Shown here: one piece after another, positions 15,999 through 64,000 of the stretch
How positions within the stretch are numbered: the first letter of the stretch is position 1
Layout: each line of letters opens with the position of its first letter
Source of the DNA: Escherichia coli O127:H6 str. E2348/69
Lineage (GTDB): Bacteria; Pseudomonadota; Gammaproteobacteria; Enterobacterales; Enterobacteriaceae
Assembly: GCF_000026545.1 (NCBI RefSeq)
Contig: NC_011601.1
DNA length: 64,000 bases
Direction: 5' to 3' (one strand)
The notes under the pieces: generated by a model
Database searches by the model: none
The model's input: the letters and a program-made list of their open reading frames with translations, nothing else
What the model was told of the DNA's origin: nothing
Made by a program: the position numbers and the translations under genes

Positions 15999-18241
<2,243 letters not shown>

Positions 18242-18319
18242 TTTTTTCATCGCTCAAGGCGGGCCGTGTAACGTATAATGCGGCTTTGTTTAATCATCAT
18301 CTACCACAGAGGAACATGT

Positions 18320-18589
18320 ATGGGTGGTATCAGTATTTGGCAGTTATTGATTATTGCCGTCATCGTTGTACTGCTTTTTGGCACCAAAAAGCTCGGCTCC
18401 ATCGGTTCCGATCTTGGTGCGTCGATCAAAGGCTTTAAAAAAGCAATGAGCGATGATGAACCAAAGCAGGATAAAATCAGCCAGGATGCTGATTTTACTG
18501 CGAAAACTATCGCCGATAAGCAGGCGGATACGAATCAGGAACAGGCTAAAACAGAAGACGCGAAGCGCCACGATAAAGAGCAGGTGTAA
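18320..18589 (+). CDS. tatA: Twin-arginine translocase subunit TatA
   Basis: [33 protein letters not shown]. Confidence 0.95.
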
Positions 18590-19110: not shown

Positions 19111-19887
19111 ATGTCTGTAGAAGATACTCAACCGCTTATCACGCATCTGATTGAGCTGCGTAAGCGTCTGCTGAACTGCATTATCGCGGTGATCGTGATA
19201 TTCCTGTGTCTGGTCTATTTCGCCAATGACATCTATCACCTGGTATCCGCGCCATTGATCAAGCAGTTGCCGCAAGGTTCAACGATGATCGCCACCGACG
19301 TGGCCTCGCCGTTCTTTACGCCGATCAAGCTGACCTTTATGGTGTCGCTGATTCTTTCAGCGCCGGTGATTCTCTATCAGGTGTGGGCGTTTATCGCCCC
19401 AGCGCTGTATAAGCATGAACGTCGCCTGGTGGTGCCGCTGCTGGTTTCCAGCTCTCTGTTGTTTTATATCGGCATGGCGTTCGCCTACTTTGTGGTCTTT
19501 CCGCTGGCATTTGGCTTCCTTGCCAATACCGCGCCGGAAGGGGTACAGGTATCCACCGACATCGCCAGCTATTTAAGCTTCGTTATGGCGCTGTTTATGG
19601 CGTTTGGTGTCTCCTTTGAAGTGCCGGTGGCAATAGTGCTGCTGTGCTGGATGGGAATTACCTCGCCAGAAGACTTACGCAAAAAACGTCCGTATGTGCT
19701 GGTTGGCGCATTTGTTGTCGGGATGCTGCTGACGCCGCCGGATGTCTTCTCGCAAACGCTGCTGGCGATCCCGATGTATTGCCTGTTTGAAATCGGTGTC
19801 TTCTTCTCACGCTTTTACGTTGGTAAAGGGCGAAATCGGGAAGAGGAAAACGACGCTGAAGCAGAAAGCGAAAAAACTGAAGAATAA
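19111..19887 (+). CDS. tatC: Twin-arginine translocase subunit TatC
   Basis: 258-aa six-TM protein. Confidence 0.95.
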
Positions 19888-19928
19888 ATTCAACCGCCCG
19901 TCAGGGCGGTTGTCATATGGAGTACAGG

Positions 19929-21241
<1,313 letters not shown>

Positions 21242-54412: not shown

Positions 54413-56236
54413 GTGATCGAAAAATTGCGTAATATCGCCATCATCGCGCACGTAGACCATGGTAAAACCACCCTGGTAGACAAGCTGCTCCAACAATCCG
54501 GTACGTTCGACTCTCGTGCCGAAACCCAAGAGCGCGTGATGGACTCCAACGATTTGGAGAAAGAGCGTGGGATTACCATCCTCGCGAAAAACACCGCTAT
54601 CAAATGGAATGATTACCGTATCAACATCGTTGATACCCCGGGGCACGCCGACTTCGGTGGTGAAGTTGAACGTGTAATGTCCATGGTAGACTCAGTGCTG
54701 CTGGTGGTTGACGCATTTGACGGCCCGATGCCGCAAACGCGCTTCGTAACCAAAAAAGCGTTTGCTTACGGCCTGAAGCCGATTGTTGTTATCAACAAAG
54801 TTGACCGCCCTGGCGCGCGTCCTGATTGGGTTGTGGATCAGGTATTCGATCTGTTCGTTAACCTCGACGCGACCGACGAGCAGCTGGACTTCCCGATCGT
54901 TTACGCTTCTGCGCTGAACGGTATCGCGGGTCTGGACCACGAAGATATGGCGGAAGACATGACCCCGCTGTATCAGGCGATTGTTGACCACGTTCCTGCG
55001 CCGGACGTTGACCTTGACGGTCCGTTCCAGATGCAGATTTCTCAGCTCGATTACAACAGCTATGTTGGCGTTATCGGCATTGGCCGCATCAAGCGCGGTA
55101 AAGTGAAGCCGAACCAGCAGGTTACTATCATCGATAGCGAAGGCAAAACCCGCAACGCGAAAGTCGGTAAAGTGCTGGGCCACCTCGGTCTGGAACGTAT
55201 CGAAACCGATCTGGCGGAAGCTGGCGATATCGTGGCGATCACGGGTCTTGGCGAACTGAACATTTCTGACACCGTTTGCGACACGCAAAACGTTGAAGCG
55301 CTGCCGGCACTCTCCGTTGATGAGCCGACCGTTTCTATGTTCTTCTGCGTTAACACCTCGCCGTTCTGCGGTAAAGAAGGTAAGTTCGTAACGTCTCGTC
55401 AGATCCTGGATCGTCTGAACAAAGAACTGGTACACAACGTTGCGCTACGCGTAGAAGAAACCGAAGACGCCGATGCGTTCCGCGTTTCTGGTCGTGGCGA
55501 ACTGCACCTGTCTGTTCTTATTGAAAACATGCGTCGTGAAGGTTTCGAACTGGCGGTATCCCGTCCGAAAGTAATCTTCCGTGAAATCGACGGTCGTAAA
55601 CAAGAGCCGTATGAAAACGTGACGCTGGACGTTGAAGAACAGCATCAGGGTTCTGTGATGCAGGCGCTGGGCGAACGTAAAGGCGACCTGAAAAACATGA
55701 ATCCAGACGGTAAAGGCCGCGTACGTCTCGACTACGTGATCCCAAGCCGTGGTCTGATTGGCTTCCGTTCTGAGTTCATGACCATGACTTCTGGTACTGG
55801 TCTGTTGTACTCCACCTTCAGCCACTACGACGACGTACGTCCGGGTGAAGTGGGTCAGCGTCAGAACGGCGTACTGATCTCTAACGGTCAGGGTAAAGCG
55901 GTAGCGTTCGCGCTGTTCGGTCTGCAGGATCGCGGTAAGCTGTTCCTCGGTCACGGTGCTGAAGTTTACGAAGGTCAGATTATCGGTATTCACAGCCGCT
56001 CTAACGACCTGACTGTAAACTGCCTGACCGGTAAGAAACTGACCAACATGCGTGCTTCCGGTACTGACGAAGCCGTTGTTCTGGTTCCGCCTATCCGCAT
56101 GACTCTGGAACAAGCTCTGGAGTTCATCGATGATGACGAGCTGGTAGAAGTGACTCCGACCTCTATCCGTATTCGTAAACGTCACCTGACGGAAAACGAT
56201 CGTCGTCGCGCCAACCGCGCACCGAAAGACGATTAA
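54413..56236 (+). CDS. typA: Ribosome-associated translational GTPase BipA/TypA (GTG start)
   Basis: 607 aa, [23 protein letters not shown]. Confidence 0.97.
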
Positions 56237-56286: not shown

Positions 56287-56342
56287 GCTTATGGAAAACA
56301 AAATCCGCTGAAATTCCCAGCGGATTTTCCGAAGTTTCAATT

Positions 56343-57131
56343 TCAGGATACTTCTTGCTCGGCAACCACCAGTTCAACATTCTCTTCACTTAACAACTGG
56401 CAGAAAGAATTGGGAGGTGGGGCATCAGTAAAAAAAGCCCTGACATTCCGTGCATTGCCAATTGAAACGGCAGCAGACGCGGTAAACTTCGTATGATCGG
56501 CCACTAACAATGTATTCCGCGCATGTTTAATCATCGTTCTCGCGACTAACGCTTCATTGACATCAAATTCCAGCAGGGTGCCGTCATGTTCAATGGCACC
56601 TATACTGGTGATTAAATAATCTGCGCGGAAGCCTTCAATAAAATCCACGGCTCCTGGGCCGATAATCCCACCGTTATGAGCGCGTAAAGTGCCTCCCGGC
56701 ACCATCACTTCAATATCCTGATTCTTATAAAGAATCTGTGCCACACGCAGGCTATTAGTGATAATGCGTAAATCACGCCGGTTGAGTAATGCCCTGGCAA
56801 CGGCTTCTACGGTTGTACCGATGGTGATAAAGACGGTACAGCGTTCGGGAAGGTAATCGGCGACTGCCTCAGCGATCGCCCGTTTCTCGGCGGTGAGCGA
56901 AAGTTCCCGTTGCTCAAAAGCGGTATTCATGACGCTGGAGACGCGCCCGGCCCCTCCATGATGACGGGTGATCAAGCCCTGCTCACTGAGTTTTCGGATA
57001 TCCCGGCGCACGGTTTGCGTTGAAACATCCAGCAGTTGTGCCAGTTCTTCAATATTCATATAACCGCGTTCTGCGATTAGATGAACGAGTTGGTCATGGC
57101 GTGGATTACCTGTCACTGCGATGATACTCAT
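56343..57131 (-). CDS. DeoR-family transcriptional regulator, YihW (CsqR)-like
   Basis: 262-aa ORF; N-terminal DeoR HTH (MNIEELAQLLDVSTQTVRRDIRKL) plus sugar-phosphate-binding domain; my recalled K-12 CsqR sequence aligns closely. Confidence 0.8.
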   Translation of the reverse strand: MSIIAVTGNPRHDQLVHLIAERGYMNIEELAQLLDVSTQTVRRDIRKLSEQGLITRHHGGAGRVSSVMNTAFEQRELSLTAEKRAIAEAVADYLPERCTVFITIGTTVEAVARALLNRRDLRIITNSLRVAQILYKNQDIEVMVPGGTLRAHNGGIIGPGAVDFIEGFRADYLITSIGAIEHDGTLLEFDVNEALVARTMIKHARNTLLVADHTKFTASAAVSIGNARNVRAFFTDAPPPNSFCQLLSEENVELVVAEQEVS

Positions 57132-57170
57132 GAATACTCCCTTGCCCCTCCTCGGTAGATGTTTACCATT

Positions 57171-58067
57171 TTACGCATAAAGTGACAAAAATGATTCGGT
57201 TTGCTCACGATTAGGAATGCCGGCCCGACCGCCAGGCTGGGTACATTTCATCGCGGCAACCGCACTGGCAAAACGAATAGCCTCTTTTGTTGGCATTTTT
57301 TCTGCCAACGCTACCGCGAGTGCGCCGTGAAAAACATCGCCTGCTCCAGTGGTATCAACCACATTGACAGAAAATGCCTCCTGTTGACACAAATGACCAT
57401 CTTCAATCCACAACGATCCTTCAGAACCCAGCGTAACATACACTTTACCTGCTGTTTGTGTCGTTGCCTGGAACAAACCTTCTTCAGGTGACTGCAGGCC
57501 AGTCATGCGTTTCAGCCCTGGTGTTGAGAACACGGCGTGATCGGCAAGCGCGACAAGTGGAGAAATATCCTGCGGTGTCATATCGGCGTCTAAAAGCGTT
57601 GTCACACCCGCAAGGCGCGCTAGCGAGAATGCTTTTTCAGTACCGCTATGCCAGCGAACATCGGCCAGAATCAGATCATAACGAGAGAAATCGATCGCTT
57701 CTAACCATTCGGCATCAGTACCGAGATCAGGACTTGGATAATTAACGATAATCCGTTCGCCATGCTGATCAACGAGGATCGCTGATTGCGACGAACGGGC
57801 GTTAGGATATCGGCGGCAAAATGCGGTATTGACGCCCCAACCCTCAAGTTCTGCAAGTAAGGTATTTCCACAACTGTCATCGCCGACGCGACCGATGAAA
57901 TCAACCTCCACGCCAAGCTTTGCGATTGCAACAGCGGCTGTTGCTGCCGGGCCGCCACCAATCTCAAGATAATGATTTGCCTGATATTTCCCGCCACCCT
58001 CCGGCAGAGTGGGCAAAGAATAAATTCTGTCCTGAACTGTGATACCCACGCATGCAATTCTGGTCAT
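57171..58067 (-). CDS. PfkB-family sugar kinase, YihV (6-deoxy-6-sulfofructose kinase)-like
   Basis: Start at [11 protein letters not shown] (ATG 58067); ribokinase-family DTTGAGD motif; N-terminal extension of the six-frame ORF rejected. Confidence 0.8.
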
Positions 58068-58146
58068 ATTTGTCTTGTCCTGTTTAATTTTGTCGTCTTT
58101 GGTCAATTTAAATGACACAAATGATCAAATTAGTGATGCGTGTCGT

Positions 58147-58181
58147 GTTTTTGAACATAAATTACAAATATGCTCAAAAAC
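58147..58181. promoter_or_regulatory. Imperfect 13-bp inverted repeat GTTTTTGAACATA-N9-TATGCTCAAAAAC in the divergent kinase/reductase promoter region
   Basis: 12 of 13 positions complementary; surrounded by repeated TTTGTC motifs; candidate operator. Confidence 0.35.
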
Positions 58182-58239
58182 AGACGAAAACGAATTTTCA
58201 ATTGTCATTATTTTGTCAATGTCAGACAGGAGAGTATTC

Positions 58240-59118
58240 ATGGCAACCATTGCATTTCTCGGGCTGGGGCAGATGGGTAGCCCAATGGCTAACAATCTAT
58301 TGCAAAAAGGGCATTCATTGCAGGTATTTGATGTCAATACACAGGCCGTCGATGCGCTAGTTACGCAGGGGGCCACTGCGGCACAAACCCCAGCGGAAGC
58401 GGCAGCAAGCGCTGAATTTATCATCACTATGCTTCCCAATGGGGACATTGTTCGACAGGTGCTGTTGGGGGAAAAAGGCGTCTGTGAAACTGTTTCATCT
58501 GACGCGTTATTGATTGATATGTCGACTATTCATCCCTTACAGACCGATGCATTAATACGGGAATTACAAGAAAAAGGCATCAATATGATGGACGCCCCCG
58601 TGGGCAGAACGTCAGTGAATGCGATTGATGGCACATTGCTGATTTTAGCGGGCGGCACTGATGAGCAGATTGCGCGTGCACGCCCGATTCTCATGTGCAT
58701 GGGTAATGAGCTGGTCGAGGCTGGCGGCCCAGGAATGGGGATCCGCGTGAAGCTAATTAACAACTATATGAGCATTGCGCTTAATGCGCTGTCCTCCGAA
58801 GCCGCTGTGTTATGTGAGTCACTGGGATTAAATCTTGATGTCGCAATTAAGGTGATGAGTGGTACGGCAGCAGGGAAAGGACATTTTACGACCACCTGGC
58901 CTGGCAAAGTGCTGAAAGGCGATCTTTCTCCCGCCTTCATGGTGGACCTGGCATTGAAAGATCTGCGTATTGCAGTTGACGTCGCTCGGGAAACGGGGGC
59001 GCCGCTCAATATGGGGATTGCAGCAGAAAGTTATTACGCCGCAGCAAGTCAAGACGGCAAAGGGCGGCAGGACTGGAGCGCCCTGCTAAATCAGGTTCGC
59101 CAGCAGGCTGGTCTTTAA
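58240..59118 (+). CDS. NAD(P)-dependent beta-hydroxyacid dehydrogenase, YihU (3-sulfolactaldehyde reductase)-like
   Basis: Start at [20 protein letters not shown] (Rossmann GLGQMG; ATG 58240 with AGGAGAG Shine-Dalgarno); 3-hydroxyisobutyrate dehydrogenase family. Confidence 0.8.
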
Positions 59119-59142
59119 TTTTATCTATTAACAGGAGTTTCT

Positions 59143-60030
59143 ATGTCATCCCACTTCACCCCATTTACGCTGAAAGATATCTCCCGCCCAGGTGGTGGAT
59201 TCGCCATGTTAGCTGTCGATCAGCGTGAGGCCATGCGCCTGATGTTTGCGGCAGCAGGGCAGCCAAAACCCATCGCCGACAGTGTACTCACCGATTTTAA
59301 AGTTGCCGCGACCCGAATCCTTTCTCCTTATGCTTCTGCCGTTCTGGCGGATAAACAATTTTGTCTTGAACAAATAGTCGAGCAGGGCGCTGTGGCTAAT
59401 TCTTGCGGCCTGATTGTCGCTGCCGATCTTTTTATCCCAGGTAATGGCATCCCGGTTGATAGCGTTGAAATAGATATGTCCGTCGACCCGCATAAAGCCC
59501 GTGAAATGGGGGCTAAGGCAATGAAATTACTTGTACTCTGGCGTGAAGATGAACCCGCAGAGGAACGTCTGGCAATGGTTGATAAATTTGTTCGTCGCTG
59601 CCGTAGTGCCGGGCTGGTTAGCATTATTGAACCTGTGGTGCGTCCACCTCGTCGCGGTTGGGACTTTGATCGTGAAAGCGCCATTGTTGCCGCCGCCGCA
59701 GAGCTTGGTGGAACAGAGGCTGATCTTTACAAAGCCGAGATGCCATTAGGGGGCAAAGGCGATGAAAAAACCTTACTTGCCGCCTGTCAGCAACTTAACG
59801 ATCAGATGAAGATGCCGTGGGTAATTCTTTCTTCTGGCGTTGATGCCGATATTTTTGGCCGTGCAGTAAGTATTGCCATGAAAGGTGGTGCGTCGGGCTT
59901 CCTGGCTGGACGAGCGGTTTGGGCGTCGGTTGTTGGTGCACAAGATCCACAAACCATGCTGCGCGATGTCTCCGTTCCACGCTTGCAACGGCTGGCTGAA
60001 ATTGTCGATGAAGGTATCGCGCAACGCTAA
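59143..60030 (+). CDS. Class I aldolase of the LacD/tagatose-bisphosphate family, YihT (sulfofructose-phosphate aldolase)-like
   Basis: 295-aa ORF ([15 protein letters not shown]...VWASVVG) immediately downstream of the reductase gene. Confidence 0.8.
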
Positions 60031-60062
60031 TCCCCTATGGATATCGATTCTGGAGAATAACA

Positions 60063-61073
60063 ATGGATAAAATTACCCAGGTTTTATTTTCAGATATTGG
60101 GAAAGTCACCACTCAATATGTTGAAGTACCACACCAGCAACTTAAACCGCACGAAGTACGGATTGCGCCCGTGTTCTACGGGATATGCGGTTCGGATCTG
60201 CATGTTCTGAAAGGCGGTCATCCGTTTGCCAAACCGCCTGTCGTCCCCGGTCATGAAATTGCAGCGCGCGTTACGGAAGTGGGCAGCGACGTTAAAAATG
60301 TACAGCCGGGCGATCATGTTGTGGTCGATCCCATCATGGCTTGCATGGAATGCCGAGCCTGCAAAGCAGGACGTTTTAATCTTTGTGAACCACCGCAGGT
60401 TGCTGGTTTTCGCGCACCGGGCTTTGCTCGCTCACAACACATTGTTCCTGCGCGTAATTGCCATGTCGCACCAGCCTCTTTACCGCTAAAAGTGTTGGCC
60501 TTTGCCGAACCGGCGGCTTGTGCTCGTCACTGCGTTAACCGAATGCCGAAAGCTTCTCTGGAAAGCGTACTGGTGATTGGTGCCGGAACGATAGGCTTAT
60601 CCATCGTGCAGGCACTGCGCATTATGGGGGCAGGTAAGATTACCGTGATTGAACCTGACGCTGCCAAACGCGCGCTGGCGTTAAAACTGGGCGCAGCAGA
60701 AGTTTGGGCACCAGGTGAGCTGGCCGCAGATGTGCGATTTACGGGGGCGATTGATGTCGTTGCAGCGCAGGCCACGCTTAACGATGCATGTACCCGTGTA
60801 TATGCCGGAGGCACCGTCGTGTGCATGGGCGTACCAAGTGGGCCGCGTGAAATACCATTACCGATGATGCAACGTTTCGAGCGTGACTTGCTCAACTCTG
60901 GCATGTACATCCCTGAAGATTTCGATGCTGTTATCGAATGGCTGGCGGATGGGCGGTTTGATACCAGTGAACTGGTTACCGATTTATTTGCCATTGAGGA
61001 TGCAGCGGCGGCATTCGAACGCGCGCAGCAAAATGACTCCATAAAGGTCATGCTGCAATTTGCGCCGGAATGA
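60063..61073 (+). CDS. Zinc-dependent medium-chain alcohol/polyol dehydrogenase (sorbitol/threonine dehydrogenase-like)
   Basis: Catalytic-zinc motifs CGSDLH and GHE, structural-zinc cysteine cluster CMECRACKAGRFNLC, NAD-binding GAGTIGL; GGAGAA Shine-Dalgarno. Confidence 0.85.
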   Translation: MDKITQVLFSDIGKVTTQYVEVPHQQLKPHEVRIAPVFYGICGSDLHVLKGGHPFAKPPVVPGHEIAARVTEVGSDVKNVQPGDHVVVDPIMACMECRACKAGRFNLCEPPQVAGFRAPGFARSQHIVPARNCHVAPASLPLKVLAFAEPAACARHCVNRMPKASLESVLVIGAGTIGLSIVQALRIMGAGKITVIEPDAAKRALALKLGAAEVWAPGELAADVRFTGAIDVVAAQATLNDACTRVYAGGTVVCMGVPSGPREIPLPMMQRFERDLLNSGMYIPEDFDAVIEWLADGRFDTSELVTDLFAIEDAAAAFERAQQNDSIKVMLQFAPE

Positions 61074-61142
61074 TTTTCTAAATCTCTGTCTGGCGCTGCG
61101 TCACGTCAGCGCCACCCTACAACAATTAAAAAGGACACTGCG

Positions 61143-62576
61143 ATGAGTCAAATCACCAGTCCTGAAACTTATTCAATTAGTCGGCCACAGGACGTAATTG
61201 ATATTGTTAATAAGAACTCTGCAATCAACACCAGTATCGGCGTTATTTTTATTGCTTTGGGCGGCATATTGATTGATGCCTACCAGGCGGCGATGGTGGG
61301 GTTTGGTAATAAATACATTGCCGCTCAATTCGGCATTTCGCCGGGTCTTGCTGCAACCGTCAATGCATCAGTATTAATCGCCGCGTTAATTGGCGGTTTA
61401 TTAGCGAACCGAGTAATAAACCGCTTTGGGCAAAAGCGGGCATTTATTATTGGCATGGGGCTGTGCACCATCGGTGCTGCAGCGGTAGCTATTGCTCCCA
61501 GTATCTGGTGGGTGCTGGTGTGCCGCGTCATCATGGGCTTTGGTTTAGGCATCGACTTCCCTTTGGCAACCAATGCCGTGGCAGAGCTTCGTGGTTCAAC
61601 GTCGAAGAAAACCGGAACGTCGGTCAACCTCTGGCAAATGGCCTGGTATGTTTCGACAACCGTTGTTTATTTGGTGCTTTTGCCGCTGCTTCTGTCGGGT
61701 ATCGCTGAAGAACAATTGTGGCGTTACGGAATATTCATCGGAGCTATTTTTGCAGTCATCTTCATGATTTTGCGTTACTTCTTTATTGGTGAATCCGCAA
61801 TGTGGGCCGCACGCGTCGGGCGTTACCAGGAAGCGTGCGACATTCTGGGAAAACGTTATGGTGTTCAGGCTCGCGTTGCGGCATCGGGTACAACAGAAGC
61901 GAAATTCTCGGAAAAAGCAGAGAATAAATACAGTGGTGGATATGGCATCTTATTTAATGATCGTTACCGCAAACGCACCATTCTTGGCTGTGTCGTGGCA
62001 ACCATGCAGGCGTGGCAATATAACGCCGTAGGTGTTTATCTTCCTCTTACGTTGGCGGGAATAATAAGTGGCGGGCTTACTGGCGCGTTGACCGGTTCTG
62101 CCGTCGTGAATGCCCTTTGTGGGGTGACAGGCGGGATGATCGGCTCGTTTATTCTCCAACGACTGGGTACTCGCCGACAGTCGATGTATGGATTTGCTGT
62201 TGTGACCTTAGCATTGCTGTCGTTAGGCGCACTGGCAACGACTAATCCCTGGCTGTCTTTAGGGTTATTGGGATCAATTATTTTCTTCCATTCAGCGGGT
62301 CCTGGTGGGCTGGGCATGACCATTGCCACACTCTCTTATCCTCCCGCTATTCGCCCTACTGGGGTCGGATTTGCCCGCGCTATTATGCGCACAGGGGCAA
62401 TTGCAGGACTCATTTTCTGGCCGATGCTGTGGGGTGCGTTGAAAACTGAAGCGTTTTACTGGTTGGCAATCGTGCCATTCCTGGGATTCCTGACCTGTGT
62501 ATTGATTAATTGGGAACCACTGGGTGCAAATGTTGATGCTGAGGACGCAGAGGTTCTGGCTGAATTGAAGAAATAA
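61143..62576 (+). CDS. MFS transporter, sugar-porter-like (12 TM)
   Basis: 477-aa hydrophobic ORF with an MFS-type loop motif (GLLANRVINRFGQKRA). Confidence 0.75.
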   Translation: MSQITSPETYSISRPQDVIDIVNKNSAINTSIGVIFIALGGILIDAYQAAMVGFGNKYIAAQFGISPGLAATVNASVLIAALIGGLLANRVINRFGQKRAFIIGMGLCTIGAAAVAIAPSIWWVLVCRVIMGFGLGIDFPLATNAVAELRGSTSKKTGTSVNLWQMAWYVSTTVVYLVLLPLLLSGIAEEQLWRYGIFIGAIFAVIFMILRYFFIGESAMWAARVGRYQEACDILGKRYGVQARVAASGTTEAKFSEKAENKYSGGYGILFNDRYRKRTILGCVVATMQAWQYNAVGVYLPLTLAGIISGGLTGALTGSAVVNALCGVTGGMIGSFILQRLGTRRQSMYGFAVVTLALLSLGALATTNPWLSLGLLGSIIFFHSAGPGGLGMTIATLSYPPAIRPTGVGFARAIMRTGAIAGLIFWPMLWGALKTEAFYWLAIVPFLGFLTCVLINWEPLGANVDAEDAEVLAELKK

Positions 62577-62610
62577 TTTAATGCGCATCGGTTTAAGCCG
62601 ATGCGCATTA
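62577..62610. other. 14-bp perfect inverted repeat TTAATGCGCATCGG-(6)-CCGATGCGCATTAA between the two transporter genes
   Basis: Read directly; no T-run follows, so not a canonical intrinsic terminator. Confidence 0.5.
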
Positions 62611-62674
62611 ATTCAAACTGCCCACGTTTAGTGGTTCGTATCCCAGATTTCTCGCCTACCAGGAGAGGAAAATT

Positions 62675-64000
62675 ATGTCTGAAAAGTTACCCGCACCGCG
62701 TGAAGGGCTTTCCGGTAAAGCCATGAGACGTGTCGTTATGGGCAGTTTCGCAGGCGCGTTAATGGAATGGTATGACTTCTTTATTTTTGGCACGGCAGCA
62801 GGACTGGTATTTGCACCGCTGTTTTATCCAGACAGCGATCCTTTTATAGGTCTTATAGCTTCCTTTGCGACCTTTGGTGTCGGTTTTCTGACTCGTCCTT
62901 TAGGTGGCATCGTCTTTGGTCATTTTGGCGATAAAATAGGGCGAAAAATAACGCTTATCTGGACGTTGGCTATTGTCGGTTGCTCCACATTTTTGATTGG
63001 TTTTATTCCGACGCATCAGGAAATTGGGATCTGGGCACCGCTCATATTAATGGTGCTACGTTTAATTCAGGGCTTTGGTCTTGGTGGCGAGTACGGCGGA
63101 GCGGCATTGATGACCATAGAATCAGCGCCCGAATCCCGACGCGGATTTTTAGGTTCACTCCCGCAAACGGCTGCGTCTGTGGGTATTATGCTGGCAACCG
63201 GTATTTTTGCTCTCTGTAACCATTTTCTGACTTCGGAGCAGTTTCTCTCCTGGGGATGGCGCATTCCGTTTTGGCTTTCTGCGGTGATGTTGATCGTTGG
63301 GCTGTTTATCCGCCTGCATACCGAAGAAACGCTGGATTTTCAAAAGCAAAAAACGACGAATAATAAAGAAAAGCCCGTTCCTCCGTTGATTGAATTATTC
63401 AAAAAACATCCACGAAATATTTTATTGGCACTGGGTGCGAGGCTGGCGGAAAGTGTCTCCTCTAATATTATTAACGCCTTTGGTATTGTCTATATTTCCA
63501 GCCAATTAGCATTGTCGCGAGATATTCCCCTGACGGGTATGTTGATTGCCTCGGCGATCGGTATTTTCAGTTGTCCATTGGTTGGATGGTTATCAGATCG
63601 TATAGGTCAAAAAAGTCTGTATTTGTCGGGAGCAGGATTTTGTGTCCTGTTCGCGTTTCCTTTCTTCTTATTACTGGATAGCAAAAGTACGCTCATCATC
63701 TGGTGCAGTATGATCCTCGGCTACAACTTAGGTCCGACGATGATGTTTGCCGTGCAGCCAACACTTTTCACCCGCATGTTCGGTACCAAAGTACGATATA
63801 CCGGCCTTTCTTTTGCTTATCAATTTTCCGCGATTCTTGGCGGACTAAGCCCCCTTATCGCCTCAAGTTTGCTGGCGCTAGGGGGAGGAAAACCGTGGTA
63901 TGTCGCTCTGTTTTTATTTGCTGTCTCAGTTCTTTCCTTTGTTTGCGTCTGGCTGATTGAGCCGACCGATGAACAAGAAACCGCTTCTTACTGCTACATC
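62675..64000 (+). CDS. MFS transporter of the metabolite:H+ symporter (MHS) family, 3' end beyond window
   Basis: My own translation from ATG 62675 (AGGAGAGG Shine-Dalgarno) is open to the window end (442 codons); MHS signature GHFGDKIGRK after TM2; not in the supplied ORF track because no stop codon is reached. Confidence 0.75.
   Translation, partial: MSEKLPAPREGLSGKAMRRVVMGSFAGALMEWYDFFIFGTAAGLVFAPLFYPDSDPFIGLIASFATFGVGFLTRPLGGIVFGHFGDKIGRKITLIWTLAIVGCSTFLIGFIPTHQEIGIWAPLILMVLRLIQGFGLGGEYGGAALMTIESAPESRRGFLGSLPQTAASVGIMLATGIFALCNHFLTSEQFLSWGWRIPFWLSAVMLIVGLFIRLHTEETLDFQKQKTTNNKEKPVPPLIELFKKHPRNILLALGARLAESVSSNIINAFGIVYISSQLALSRDIPLTGMLIASAIGIFSCPLVGWLSDRIGQKSLYLSGAGFCVLFAFPFFLLLDSKSTLIIWCSMILGYNLGPTMMFAVQPTLFTRMFGTKVRYTGLSFAYQFSAILGGLSPLIASSLLALGGGKPWYVALFLFAVSVLSFVCVWLIEPTDEQETASYCYI

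Follow-up and report, generated by a model that had tools for sequence, protein, structure and literature searches.

Between typA and yihX, where Escherichia coli K-12 carries its sulfoglycolysis genes, the chromosome of E. coli O127:H6 str. E2348/69 carries a different, eight-gene cassette. This locus raises the question of how a sulfoglycolysis-type unit might operate, and on what substrate, if the isomerase and the sulfoquinovosidase of the K-12 pathway are both missing. The stretch of DNA analysed here, hereafter called the window, comprises 64,000 nucleotides of RefSeq contig NC_011601.1 and ends within the seventh gene of the cassette; the remainder was read from the E2348/69 genome record. 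Turnover of sulfoquinovose forms a major branch of the sulfur cycle and supplies hydrogen sulfide-producing bacteria in the gut by way of 2,3-dihydroxypropane-1-sulfonate (DHPS), with E. coli serving as the model organism for the pathway. Approximately 24% of complete E. coli genomes carry the alternative allele instead of the K-12 cluster, including the enteropathogenic strain E2348/69 and, by published description, the probiotic strain Nissle 1917.

We find that this arrangement is not due to chance, because the entry module of the cassette (dehydrogenase to epimerase) is complete in 1327 of the 5426 complete E. coli genomes and because the gene set is conserved across phyla. The cassette is a complete conserved unit and not a remnant. 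From sulfofructose onward it very probably works like the Embden-Meyerhof-Parnas form of sulfoglycolysis (sulfo-EMP), without the defining isomerase and sulfoquinovosidase steps. We read the cassette as a complete alternative allele at the sulfoglycolysis locus of E. coli, a self-contained sulfo-EMP-type unit of two modules, and consider it an evenly poised proposition that entry proceeds by oxidation of a 6-sulfo-hexitol. The genes of the cassette, with coordinates of the window, are as follows.

56343-57131, minus strand: DeoR-family regulator resembling CsqR/YihW (matches the RefSeq annotation of E2348/69).
57171-58067, minus strand: PfkB kinase, probable 6-deoxy-6-sulfofructose 1-kinase, YihV-like (RefSeq ATG start at 58067).
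58068-58239, no strand: divergent promoter/operator region, the 172-nucleotide gap between kinase and reductase (from alignment with K-12 and the Hafnia-type cluster).
58240-59118, plus strand: probable sulfolactaldehyde reductase of the beta-hydroxyacid dehydrogenase family, YihU-like (from its NF012005 score).
59143-60030, plus strand: class I aldolase, probable sulfofructose-1-phosphate (SFP) aldolase, YihT-like (from identity to YihT and from solved structures).
60063-61073, plus strand: Zn-dependent medium-chain dehydrogenase (WP_000357981), the proposed sulfofructose-forming enzyme.
61143-62576, plus strand: MFS transporter 1 (MFS1), Sugar_tr/aromatic-acid:H+ symporter-like (NCBIfam subfamily matches, all below cut-off).
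62675 to beyond 64000, plus strand: MFS transporter 2 (MFS2), of the MHS family and ShiA-like (reading frame open at the window end, stopping 24 nucleotides beyond it).
64014-64901 in genome-equivalent numbering (19815-20702 of locus record L001), just past the window: aldose-1-epimerase-family gene (RefSeq annotation).

The window matches the E2348/69 genome at 100% identity, and the positions within it agree with the RefSeq annotation, which likewise bears out the open reading frames (ORFs), the Zn dehydrogenase and the two MFS transporters placed there by the original prediction, a reading of the window from its letters alone. In the ORF list used for that reading the kinase frame extends to a GTG codon at 58118, upstream of the ATG chosen by RefSeq. 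The epimerase-family gene overlaps MFS2 by 11 nucleotides and is followed by yihX, such that the eight genes occupy the typA-yihX interval with the regulator and kinase on the minus strand and all others after the divergent gap. RefSeq labels the reductase of this allele 'yihU: sulfolactaldehyde 3-reductase', and names the kinase and the aldolase only 'sugar kinase' and 'aldolase'. With such generic names, the sulfoglycolytic nature of the allele is hidden by automated annotation.

In K-12, the corresponding interval between typA (bipA) and yihX holds yihL-yihM-yihN-ompL-yihOPQRSTU followed by the divergent yihVW genes. In E2348/69, this block of ~15 kb has been swapped for an inverted block of 8.7 kb. 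No homologue of YihS, YihQ, YihO/P or OmpL is present in the window or downstream to yihX, and no isomerase of the YihS (PF07221) or SqvD (PF02952) type is found between typA and yihX. Neither a sulfoquinovosidase (GH31 YihQ or NAD-dependent GH188) nor a GPH-type importer is encoded in the cassette or its orthologues, whose transporters are of the MHS and Sugar_tr types. In their place the alternative allele encodes the Zn dehydrogenase, two MFS transporters outside the GPH family and a distant relative of YihR from the epimerase family. It had been predicted that this is a variant sulfoglycolysis-type locus and not a set of K-12 genes split by an unrelated insertion, and the sequence beyond the window agrees: yihS, yihR, yihQ, yihP and yihO are not there, and only the epimerase-family gene and yihX lie downstream. 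The absence of yihS, yihQ and yihO/P relative to K-12 was called correctly, although the additional loss of yihLMN and the inversion of the core had gone unremarked. The prediction erred in treating the mutarotase as replaced, as an aldose-1-epimerase-family gene lies just outside the window, though its product shares just 27% identity with YihR.

The four core proteins align with their K-12 counterparts without gaps, at 71% identity for the regulator (to CsqR), 67% for the kinase (to YihV), 72% for the reductase (to YihU) and 67% for the aldolase (to YihT), which substantiates the YihW/V/U/T-like core proposed earlier. Crystallography has mapped the sulfonate pockets of these enzymes to K27-N109-R138 in the kinase, to R253/A26 together with the Schiff-base lysine K193 in the aldolase, and to N174-S178 plus the backbone of R123 in the reductase; D13 and S95 of the kinase bind the C3 and C4 hydroxyls of sulfofructose, and D244 is catalytic (PMC8006165). 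All of these published pocket and catalytic residues are kept, both in E2348/69 and in every enterobacterial-type orthologue. Specifically, the kinase retains the K27-N109-R138 triad as well as D13, S95, D162 and D244, and the reductase retains R123, N174 and S178. Residues A26, K193, S226, S227 and R253 of the aldolase are kept in all class I aldolase homologues of cassettes carrying the Zn dehydrogenase. The reductase also scores 581.6 bits against the NCBIfam model NF012005 ('sulfolactaldehyde 3-reductase'; cut-off 348), and the top solved structures for the aldolase are the SFP aldolases 7ag1, 7ag7 and 1to3 (406-416 bits). The regulator matches DeoR/GlpR models of NCBIfam, every one of them below its equivalog cut-off.

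Identities of 67-72% are far too low for allelic variation and far too high for a change of enzyme function. Given this similarity and the retention of every sulfonate residue, the core very probably still converts sulfofructose to DHPS. A non-sulfonated deoxy-sugar pathway, which had been offered as an alternative, is made unlikely by the conserved sulfonate residues and the reductase model score.

The cassette also shares a homologous divergent promoter region with the K-12 cluster. The intergenic region between kinase and reductase contains a block, ATAAATTACAAATAYGMTCAAAAACAGAC, that together with its ribosome binding site context is common to K-12, the Hafnia-type canonical cluster and the alternative allele. 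Features of a CsqR-type regulon are therefore present, namely the CsqR homologue and a conserved intergenic operator/promoter block. The shared block fits the cross-binding of the regulators of the two E. coli alleles that has been observed by electrophoretic mobility shift assay (EMSA) (PMC12608037).

That report, from October 2025, is the only paper on this allele, whose core it describes as a 'short yih cassette (yihTUVW)' at the same locus in reversed orientation, enriched in B2/pathogenic strains and Nissle 1917, with a YihW that is ~72% identical to the K-12 protein (PMC12608037). The published short cassette is very probably the allele found in E2348/69. In Nissle 1917 it was not induced by sulfoquinovose, and it was interpreted as a truncated four-gene form without a clear role, no longer involved in sulfoquinovose degradation (PMC12608037). 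A sulfoquinovose isomerase was reported to be absent elsewhere in short-cassette genomes (PMC12608037). The Nissle YihW homologue binds the yihU/V region in EMSA experiments (PMC12608037).

The dehydrogenase, MFS and epimerase genes are not among the differentially expressed genes of the Nissle RNA-seq supplement, and the module that they form is not mentioned in that paper, in the CsqR phylogeny paper, in the class II aldolase survey or in the 2026 sulfoquinovose review (PMC12608037 for the first). A gene neighbourhood analysis published in JBC in 2023 does not mention PF00107 or PF08240, and a literature search with the RefSeq protein accessions of the cassette gave no match. Thus, the existence of the allele was already known, while its eight-gene extent, its conservation across phyla, the exchange of modules and a distinct entry reaction are undescribed in the searchable literature. 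In contrast to the published view of four genes, the four adjoining genes are an integral part of a cross-phylum unit under purifying selection.

This view is based on orthologous loci that were fetched from species-representative genomes via the dehydrogenase, and onto which all K-12 and alternative-allele proteins were mapped. Loci with all eight families come from Escherichia sp., six Citrobacter species, Phytobacter, Mixta, Erwinia, Enterobacter, Trabulsiella, Edaphovirga, Leminorella and Budvicia; they are also known, with the genes in a different order, from Pantoea, Tenebrionibacter, Vibrio rhodolitus, Roseospira, Pleomorphomonas and Rhodopseudomonas palustris. The set of Streptomyces marincola lacks the epimerase gene, and a contig of a Propionibacteriaceae metagenome-assembled genome preserves the same gene order until the contig ends inside the reductase gene. 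Overall, the eight families are co-conserved over ~25 loci from Enterobacterales, Vibrio, Alphaproteobacteria and Actinobacteria, and the comparative genomics suggested with the original prediction thus recovers the same gene set well beyond E. coli. At none of 21 orthologous loci is a homologue of YihS, YihQ or YihO/P found within 10 kb on either side, and an all-against-all comparison of flanking ORFs yields no ninth co-conserved gene, such as one for an aldo-keto reductase, an isomerase or a glycosidase. One candidate entry enzyme, a long-chain mannitol-dehydrogenase-like ORF beside the cassette of Citrobacter sp. NCU1, was rejected as it is not conserved elsewhere.

Within E. coli, the alternative allele spans lineages, with the same layout in a creek-sediment O121 strain and in isolates from humans, dogs, cattle, pigs and poultry; the K-12 yihQ-yihS region is complete in 3886 of the 5426 complete genomes. 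Comparisons of E. coli with cryptic Escherichia, Citrobacter and Phytobacter give dN/dS values of 0.016-0.09 for seven of the genes and 0.09-0.16 for the epimerase, the least constrained of the eight. The value for the dehydrogenase is 0.016-0.026.

The strongest functional argument comes from the modularity of these clusters. In the Zn-dehydrogenase cassettes of Budvicia, Leminorella and Vibrio, a class II aldolase takes the slot of the class I enzyme. The one from Budvicia agrees at nearly every residue, along its whole length, with PDB entries 8q57 (505 bits) and 8q58 (493 bits), and we take these structures to be the class II SFP aldolases SqiA of Yersinia and Hafnia. The SqiA enzymes cleave SFP and are inactive on fructose 1,6-bisphosphate (FBP) (PMC10665668). 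The genome that encodes the 8q58 protein has the same core, a regulator-kinase pair and a reductase-aldolase pair, joined to the canonical entry set of a PF01263 mutarotase, a PF02952 isomerase, a GH31 sulfoquinovosidase, two GPH transporters and a KdgM porin. The hybrid sulfo-EMP1/2 clusters of Hafnia paralvei and Yersinia aldovae (PMC10665668) share their core architecture with the Zn-dehydrogenase cassettes, which differ from them in lacking the canonical entry set.

One core module thus occurs with either of two entry modules. Core proteins of Budvicia, Leminorella and Edaphovirga are 75-80% identical to the canonical K-12/Hafnia proteins and 67-70% identical to those of the E. coli alternative allele. 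By identity, the core proteins do not group by entry type, as those accompanied by a Zn dehydrogenase are interleaved with canonical ones, which is expected if both entry modules deliver sulfofructose.

A link to sulfonates is also evident outside E. coli. The sister group of the dehydrogenase (42-45% identity) is flanked by genes for a PfkB kinase, an aldolase and an MHS-type MFS transporter. In a Streptomyces sister cluster (L032), PfkB kinase, aldolase, TauE-family permease, Zn dehydrogenase and MHS-type MFS genes adjoin a gene for a GabD/SSADH-like aldehyde dehydrogenase, and the latter enzyme and TauE stand in place of the reductase and the other MFS transporter. Sulfolactaldehyde has a known alternative fate, which is oxidation to sulfolactate followed by export, and the Streptomyces cluster has the pattern expected for this fate.

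If the core receives sulfofructose, then the enzyme most likely to supply it is the Zn dehydrogenase. It is the sole non-core enzyme that is invariably present, and its gene adjoins the aldolase/kinase genes at all loci compared. The enzyme misses every NCBIfam equivalog cut-off, with a top match to PRK10083 at 165 bits (cut-off 376) and lower scores for Tdh (139 versus 380), IdnD (125 versus 469) and GatD (113 versus 550). RspB (4ilk) is its closest solved structure and counts among its nearest relatives, the others being a ketose reductase, threonine and sorbitol dehydrogenases, IdnD and GatD. The orthologues form a sharply bounded group at or above 55% identity with a steep fall below, and bear generic names only, save for some members of the family that are named L-gulonate 5-dehydrogenase by JGI. 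The scores below cut-off for all characterised equivalogs indicate a distinct, uncharacterised orthologous group.

Across 87 orthologues, the catalytic zinc ligands C42/H64/E65/E149, the structural zinc ligands C94/C97/C100/C108 and the dinucleotide fold G173xG175xxG178 are conserved, followed by an invariant E197, a glutamate whose position at the end of the fold marks an NAD+-type enzyme. This fingerprint is of the ordinary exchangeable-NAD+ type without an extra insertion. The protein carries the polyol-dehydrogenase motif GICGSDLH, and in the loop following the structural-zinc lobe it has a family-specific invariant R117, where RspB and 4ej6 have His. It thus shares its fold, zinc sites and CGSD(L/V)H motif with RspB, IdnD, GatD and sorbitol dehydrogenase. 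Unlike RspB, IdnD and GatD, it has sulfoglycolysis genes as partners instead of uronate, idonate or galactitol genes.

The reactions of these relatives suggest what the enzyme may do. RspB, the nearest solved structure, is presumably an L-gulonate 5-dehydrogenase. RspB-type L-gulonate 5-dehydrogenase yields D-fructuronate, the L-idonate 5-dehydrogenase IdnD yields 5-ketogluconate and the galactitol-1-phosphate 5-dehydrogenase GatD yields tagatose-6-phosphate. Each of the three oxidises the penultimate carbon, next to the terminal CH2OH, of a hexitol-like chain whose far end is anionic, and the product is a 2-ketose with an anionic C6. By this analogy, conversion of L-gulonate to D-fructuronate would be the exact carboxylate counterpart of the conversion of 6-deoxy-6-sulfo-D-glucitol to sulfofructose, and the carboxylate and phosphate reactions of RspB, IdnD and GatD support the idea of polyol oxidation.

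A similar overall logic may exist elsewhere in E. coli. PRK10083 is a generic 'Zn-dependent oxidoreductase' model that we believe to represent YdjJ. Work by Raushel and Holden on the ydj cluster reportedly concerns the Zn dehydrogenases YdjJ and YdjL, the PfkB kinase YdjH, the class II aldolase YdjI and the MFS transporters YdjE and YdjK. As we understand that cluster, it presumably follows the same order of Zn dehydrogenase, PfkB kinase and DHAP (dihydroxyacetone phosphate)-yielding aldolase, plus MFS transporters, although on another, non-sulfonated class of substrate, without a sulfolactaldehyde reductase and with low sequence similarity to the cassette. YdjI is among the matches of our class II aldolase search.

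These considerations lead us to favor, tentatively, an undescribed route of sulfoglycolysis in which an NAD+-dependent Zn dehydrogenase makes sulfofructose from a 6-deoxy-6-sulfo-hexitol imported by the MHS transporter. An anionic sulfonated substrate would be imported, probably via the MHS protein, and the Zn dehydrogenase would oxidise its penultimate carbon to give 6-deoxy-6-sulfofructose, the likeliest substrate being 6-deoxy-6-sulfo-D-glucitol or a similar 6-sulfo-hexitol. Under the control of the CsqR-like repressor and the divergent promoter, the kinase would then phosphorylate sulfofructose, the aldolase would cleave SFP to DHAP and sulfolactaldehyde, and the reductase would convert sulfolactaldehyde to DHPS, which would exit via the other MFS transporter. 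NADH formed in the entry step could be re-used by the sulfolactaldehyde reductase, leaving the sulfonated half of the pathway redox-neutral. Oxidation of a 6-sulfo-hexitol directly to the kinase substrate was already part of the original prediction, and we infer that it is the best-fitting mechanism found, in that the dehydrogenase is the only invariant entry enzyme, has an NAD+-type fingerprint and has relatives with analogous reactions; both the substrate and the direction of the reaction are proposed on these grounds. The lack of sulfoquinovose induction in Nissle 1917 also fits a different natural substrate.

If this proposal is true, it provides a candidate answer to the puzzle, posed in 2025, of a conserved cassette that does not respond to sulfoquinovose. 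It would also mean that there is either a new sulfofructose-making enzyme or a new class of natural sulfonated substrate, and might point to natural sulfonated polyols that have gone unrecognised, a pool on which about a quarter of E. coli genomes would draw, B2 pathogens and Nissle 1917 among them, as would bacteria of at least three phyla. The scoring of sulfoglycolysis potential in genomes and metagenomes would then change, as the marker sets in current use, which depend on YihQ and YihS, would miss the cassette.

The roles of the two transporters can be assigned only weakly. MFS2 scores 408 bits against the ShiA model NF007414 (cut-off 538) and 404.2 bits against TIGR00883 (cut-off 443.45), and transporters of its type are kept, at 56% identity, in minimal actinobacterial sister clusters. 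Because the MHS family carries organic anions and because the protein is retained in these minimal clusters, MFS2 is tentatively the substrate importer. MFS1 is co-conserved in all Zn-dehydrogenase cassettes at or above 55% dehydrogenase identity and is missing from both sister-group loci, including L032, where the reductase is missing as well and TauE and the aldehyde dehydrogenase are present instead. Its tentative role would be that of DHPS exporter.

Several points weigh against entry from a 6-sulfo-hexitol. We know of no 6-sulfo-hexitol that is a natural product, and a full-text literature search for sulfoquinovitol, sulfoglucitol and similar names found none. Kinases and reductases of the alphaproteobacterial and actinobacterial cassettes are only ~30% identical to those of E. 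coli and lack the exact K-N-R or N-S residues, such that the assignment to sulfonates in these bacteria rests mainly on the aldolase. Almost every proteobacterial version also carries the epimerase-family gene, and this favors an aldose as the substrate, for example sulfoquinovose, since a polyol has no anomers. Finally, growth of Nissle 1917 on sulfoquinovose is reported to be about equal to that of K-12, and this sugar partly releases the Nissle regulator from DNA (PMC12608037).

The main rival explanation, which we judge rather unlikely yet ahead of the minor ones, draws on the last two of these observations. It holds that sulfoquinovose itself is the substrate, and that the Zn dehydrogenase and the epimerase-family protein replace YihS by a redox route from aldose to ketose, perhaps by way of a 6-sulfo-hexitol or 2-keto species that forms transiently while NAD(H) is recycled on the enzyme, or aided by an unlinked aldose reductase. 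We are not aware of any medium-chain dehydrogenase that works as an aldose-ketose isomerase, and the exchangeable-NAD+ fingerprint of this enzyme speaks against such a cycle. The 71% identity of the regulator to CsqR and the lack of any other co-conserved enzyme are in keeping with this rival, as are growth of Nissle 1917 on sulfoquinovose without YihS and release of its YihW from DNA by this sugar, whereas the failure of sulfoquinovose to induce the Nissle cassette is not (PMC12608037).

The epimerase-family protein gives a divided answer. Its gene is translationally coupled to MFS2, and the protein belongs to PF01263 and keeps the two conserved His residues and an Asp. At the position of the catalytic Glu, however, the E. 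coli-clade protein has Asn ('VNPLTQAPN' versus 'VEPMSCPPN' in YihR), as do the proteins of Escherichia, Citrobacter, Phytobacter, Mixta, Erwinia, Enterobacter, Trabulsiella and Vibrio. About half of the family retains the Glu, namely the proteins of Budvicia, Leminorella, Edaphovirga and Pantoea and the majority of the alphaproteobacterial orthologues. Judged from these residues, the E. coli-clade protein may be a weakened or repurposed mutarotase. This substitution, the comparatively relaxed constraint on the gene and its absence from all three actinobacterial versions count against a redox route from sulfoquinovose.

A second, distinctly unlikely rival is that another sulfonated carbohydrate is used (for instance one derived from sulfofucose, sulforhamnose or sulfogluconate, or an epimeric sulfo-ketose), with the dehydrogenase adjusting oxidation state or stereochemistry before phosphorylation. 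Natural sulfofucose exists (bioRxiv 10.1101/2023.08.01.551581), sulforhamnose, an effector of CsqR, is a product of YihS (PMC8006165), the aldolase family has the tagatose-bisphosphate aldolases as relatives, and the cassette is not induced by sulfoquinovose (PMC12608037). However, retention of D13 and S95 in the kinase and a core that has not diverged by entry type point to sulfofructose itself as the intermediate, and an aldose epimer would need an isomerase, of which there is none at the compared loci.

Less probable again is that the same enzyme families process a substrate without a sulfonate, for example a deoxy-sugar, a sugar resembling a uronate or a phosphorylated sugar alcohol. Kinase, aldolase, Zn dehydrogenase and MFS transporter are generic parts of sugar-acid and polyol pathways, as the RefSeq names of the kinase and aldolase reflect, and the closest relatives of the dehydrogenase act on carboxylates and phosphates. 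Such a substrate would leave unexplained why all sulfonate-specific residues are kept, among them the K-N-R triad standing where PfkB kinases have their phosphate-binding motif, why the reductase exceeds the sulfolactaldehyde-reductase equivalog cut-off, why the class II aldolases of some cassettes are so close to 8q57 and 8q58, the presumed SqiA enzymes with their specificity for SFP over FBP, and why a gene of the sulfonate-exporter family TauE is present in the sister cluster.

Least probable, to the point that we disfavor it outright, is that the cassette is a truncated, decaying remnant of the long yih cassette that has left sulfosugar catabolism, a reading put forward in PMC12608037: the missing isomerase, sulfoquinovosidase and GPH transporters, the MFS1 frameshift in one O121 strain (see below), and the absent transcriptional response to sulfoquinovose and weaker regulator binding at 37 degrees C in Nissle (PMC12608037) are in keeping with it, but all eight genes have dN/dS values of 0.02-0.16, the divergence from K-12 indicates an ancient separate lineage and not a recent truncation, the four 'extra' genes belong to a unit conserved across phyla, and the cassette is intact in nearly a quarter of complete genomes.

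Several further observations concern the history of the modules. In five loci from Alphaproteobacteria and Streptomyces (L018, L021, L022, L027 and L028), the aldolase, dehydrogenase, MFS1 and MFS2 are 64-74% identical to their E. coli counterparts, the epimerase is ~51-55% identical, and the kinase, reductase and regulator are ~25-32% identical. Aldolase identity at these loci exceeds that between the E. coli alternative aldolase and K-12 YihT (67%), and by this measure the aldolase seems to move together with the entry module and not with the enterobacterial core. In the Streptomyces sister cluster (L032, positions 658-3269), an enolase-superfamily (MR_MLE) protein is encoded between the aldehyde dehydrogenase and a DeoR regulator, and it shares its Pfam families with SfcF, the sulfogalactonate dehydratase of the sulfofucose pathway.

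Between E. coli and Citrobacter sp. R56 (L001 and L004), dS is 1.5-2.7, and hence saturated, for the cassette genes, whereas typA next to them gives 0.55. This means either that the lineages of the cassette long predate the species split, through horizontal exchange, or that codon bias lowers dS in typA. The Shiga toxin-producing strain E. coli O121 str. RM8352 has an MFS1 gene annotated as frameshifted (L030, 10081-11510) among seven otherwise intact cassette genes. Its kinase and aldolase have accessions identical to those of the E2348/69 proteins, which suggests recent spread of the allele within E. coli.

The genes yihL, yihM and yihN are kept between typA and the cassette in Escherichia sp. 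MOD1-EC7003 (L003, 73-2418) and in two Citrobacter species (L004, 3134-6199; L017, 3138-6200), and are missing from the E. coli alternative allele of E2348/69 and O121 RM8352. Their retention beside the cassette in these relatives places yihLMN outside either sulfoglycolysis module and indicates that they were lost separately.

Two terminator-like sites complete the features of the locus.

56300-56328, no strand: palindromic hairpin with T-runs and a 13-pair stem, in the 107-nucleotide spacer between typA (end at 56236) and the regulator gene; likely a shared bidirectional terminator.
62578-62611, no strand: near-perfect 34-nucleotide palindrome TTAATGCGCATCGGCTTAAACCGATGCGCATTAA with 14 stem pairs and a 6-nucleotide loop, found by the scan for terminator-like sites in the 98-nucleotide gap between MFS1 and MFS2; perhaps an attenuator within the operon, an RNA-stability element or a repetitive extragenic palindromic (REP)-like element.

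A scan for sigma-70 promoters gave fewer matches than shuffled sequence did. In Citrobacter sp. NCU1 (L016, 6127-9385), a solitary E. coli-type reductase (79% identity) and regulator (81%) adjoin a second regulator of the Pantoea type, which belongs to a cassette that has a class II aldolase and is followed by the long-chain mannitol-dehydrogenase-family ORF (17018-18403) mentioned above. This arrangement looks like the scar of a module exchange.

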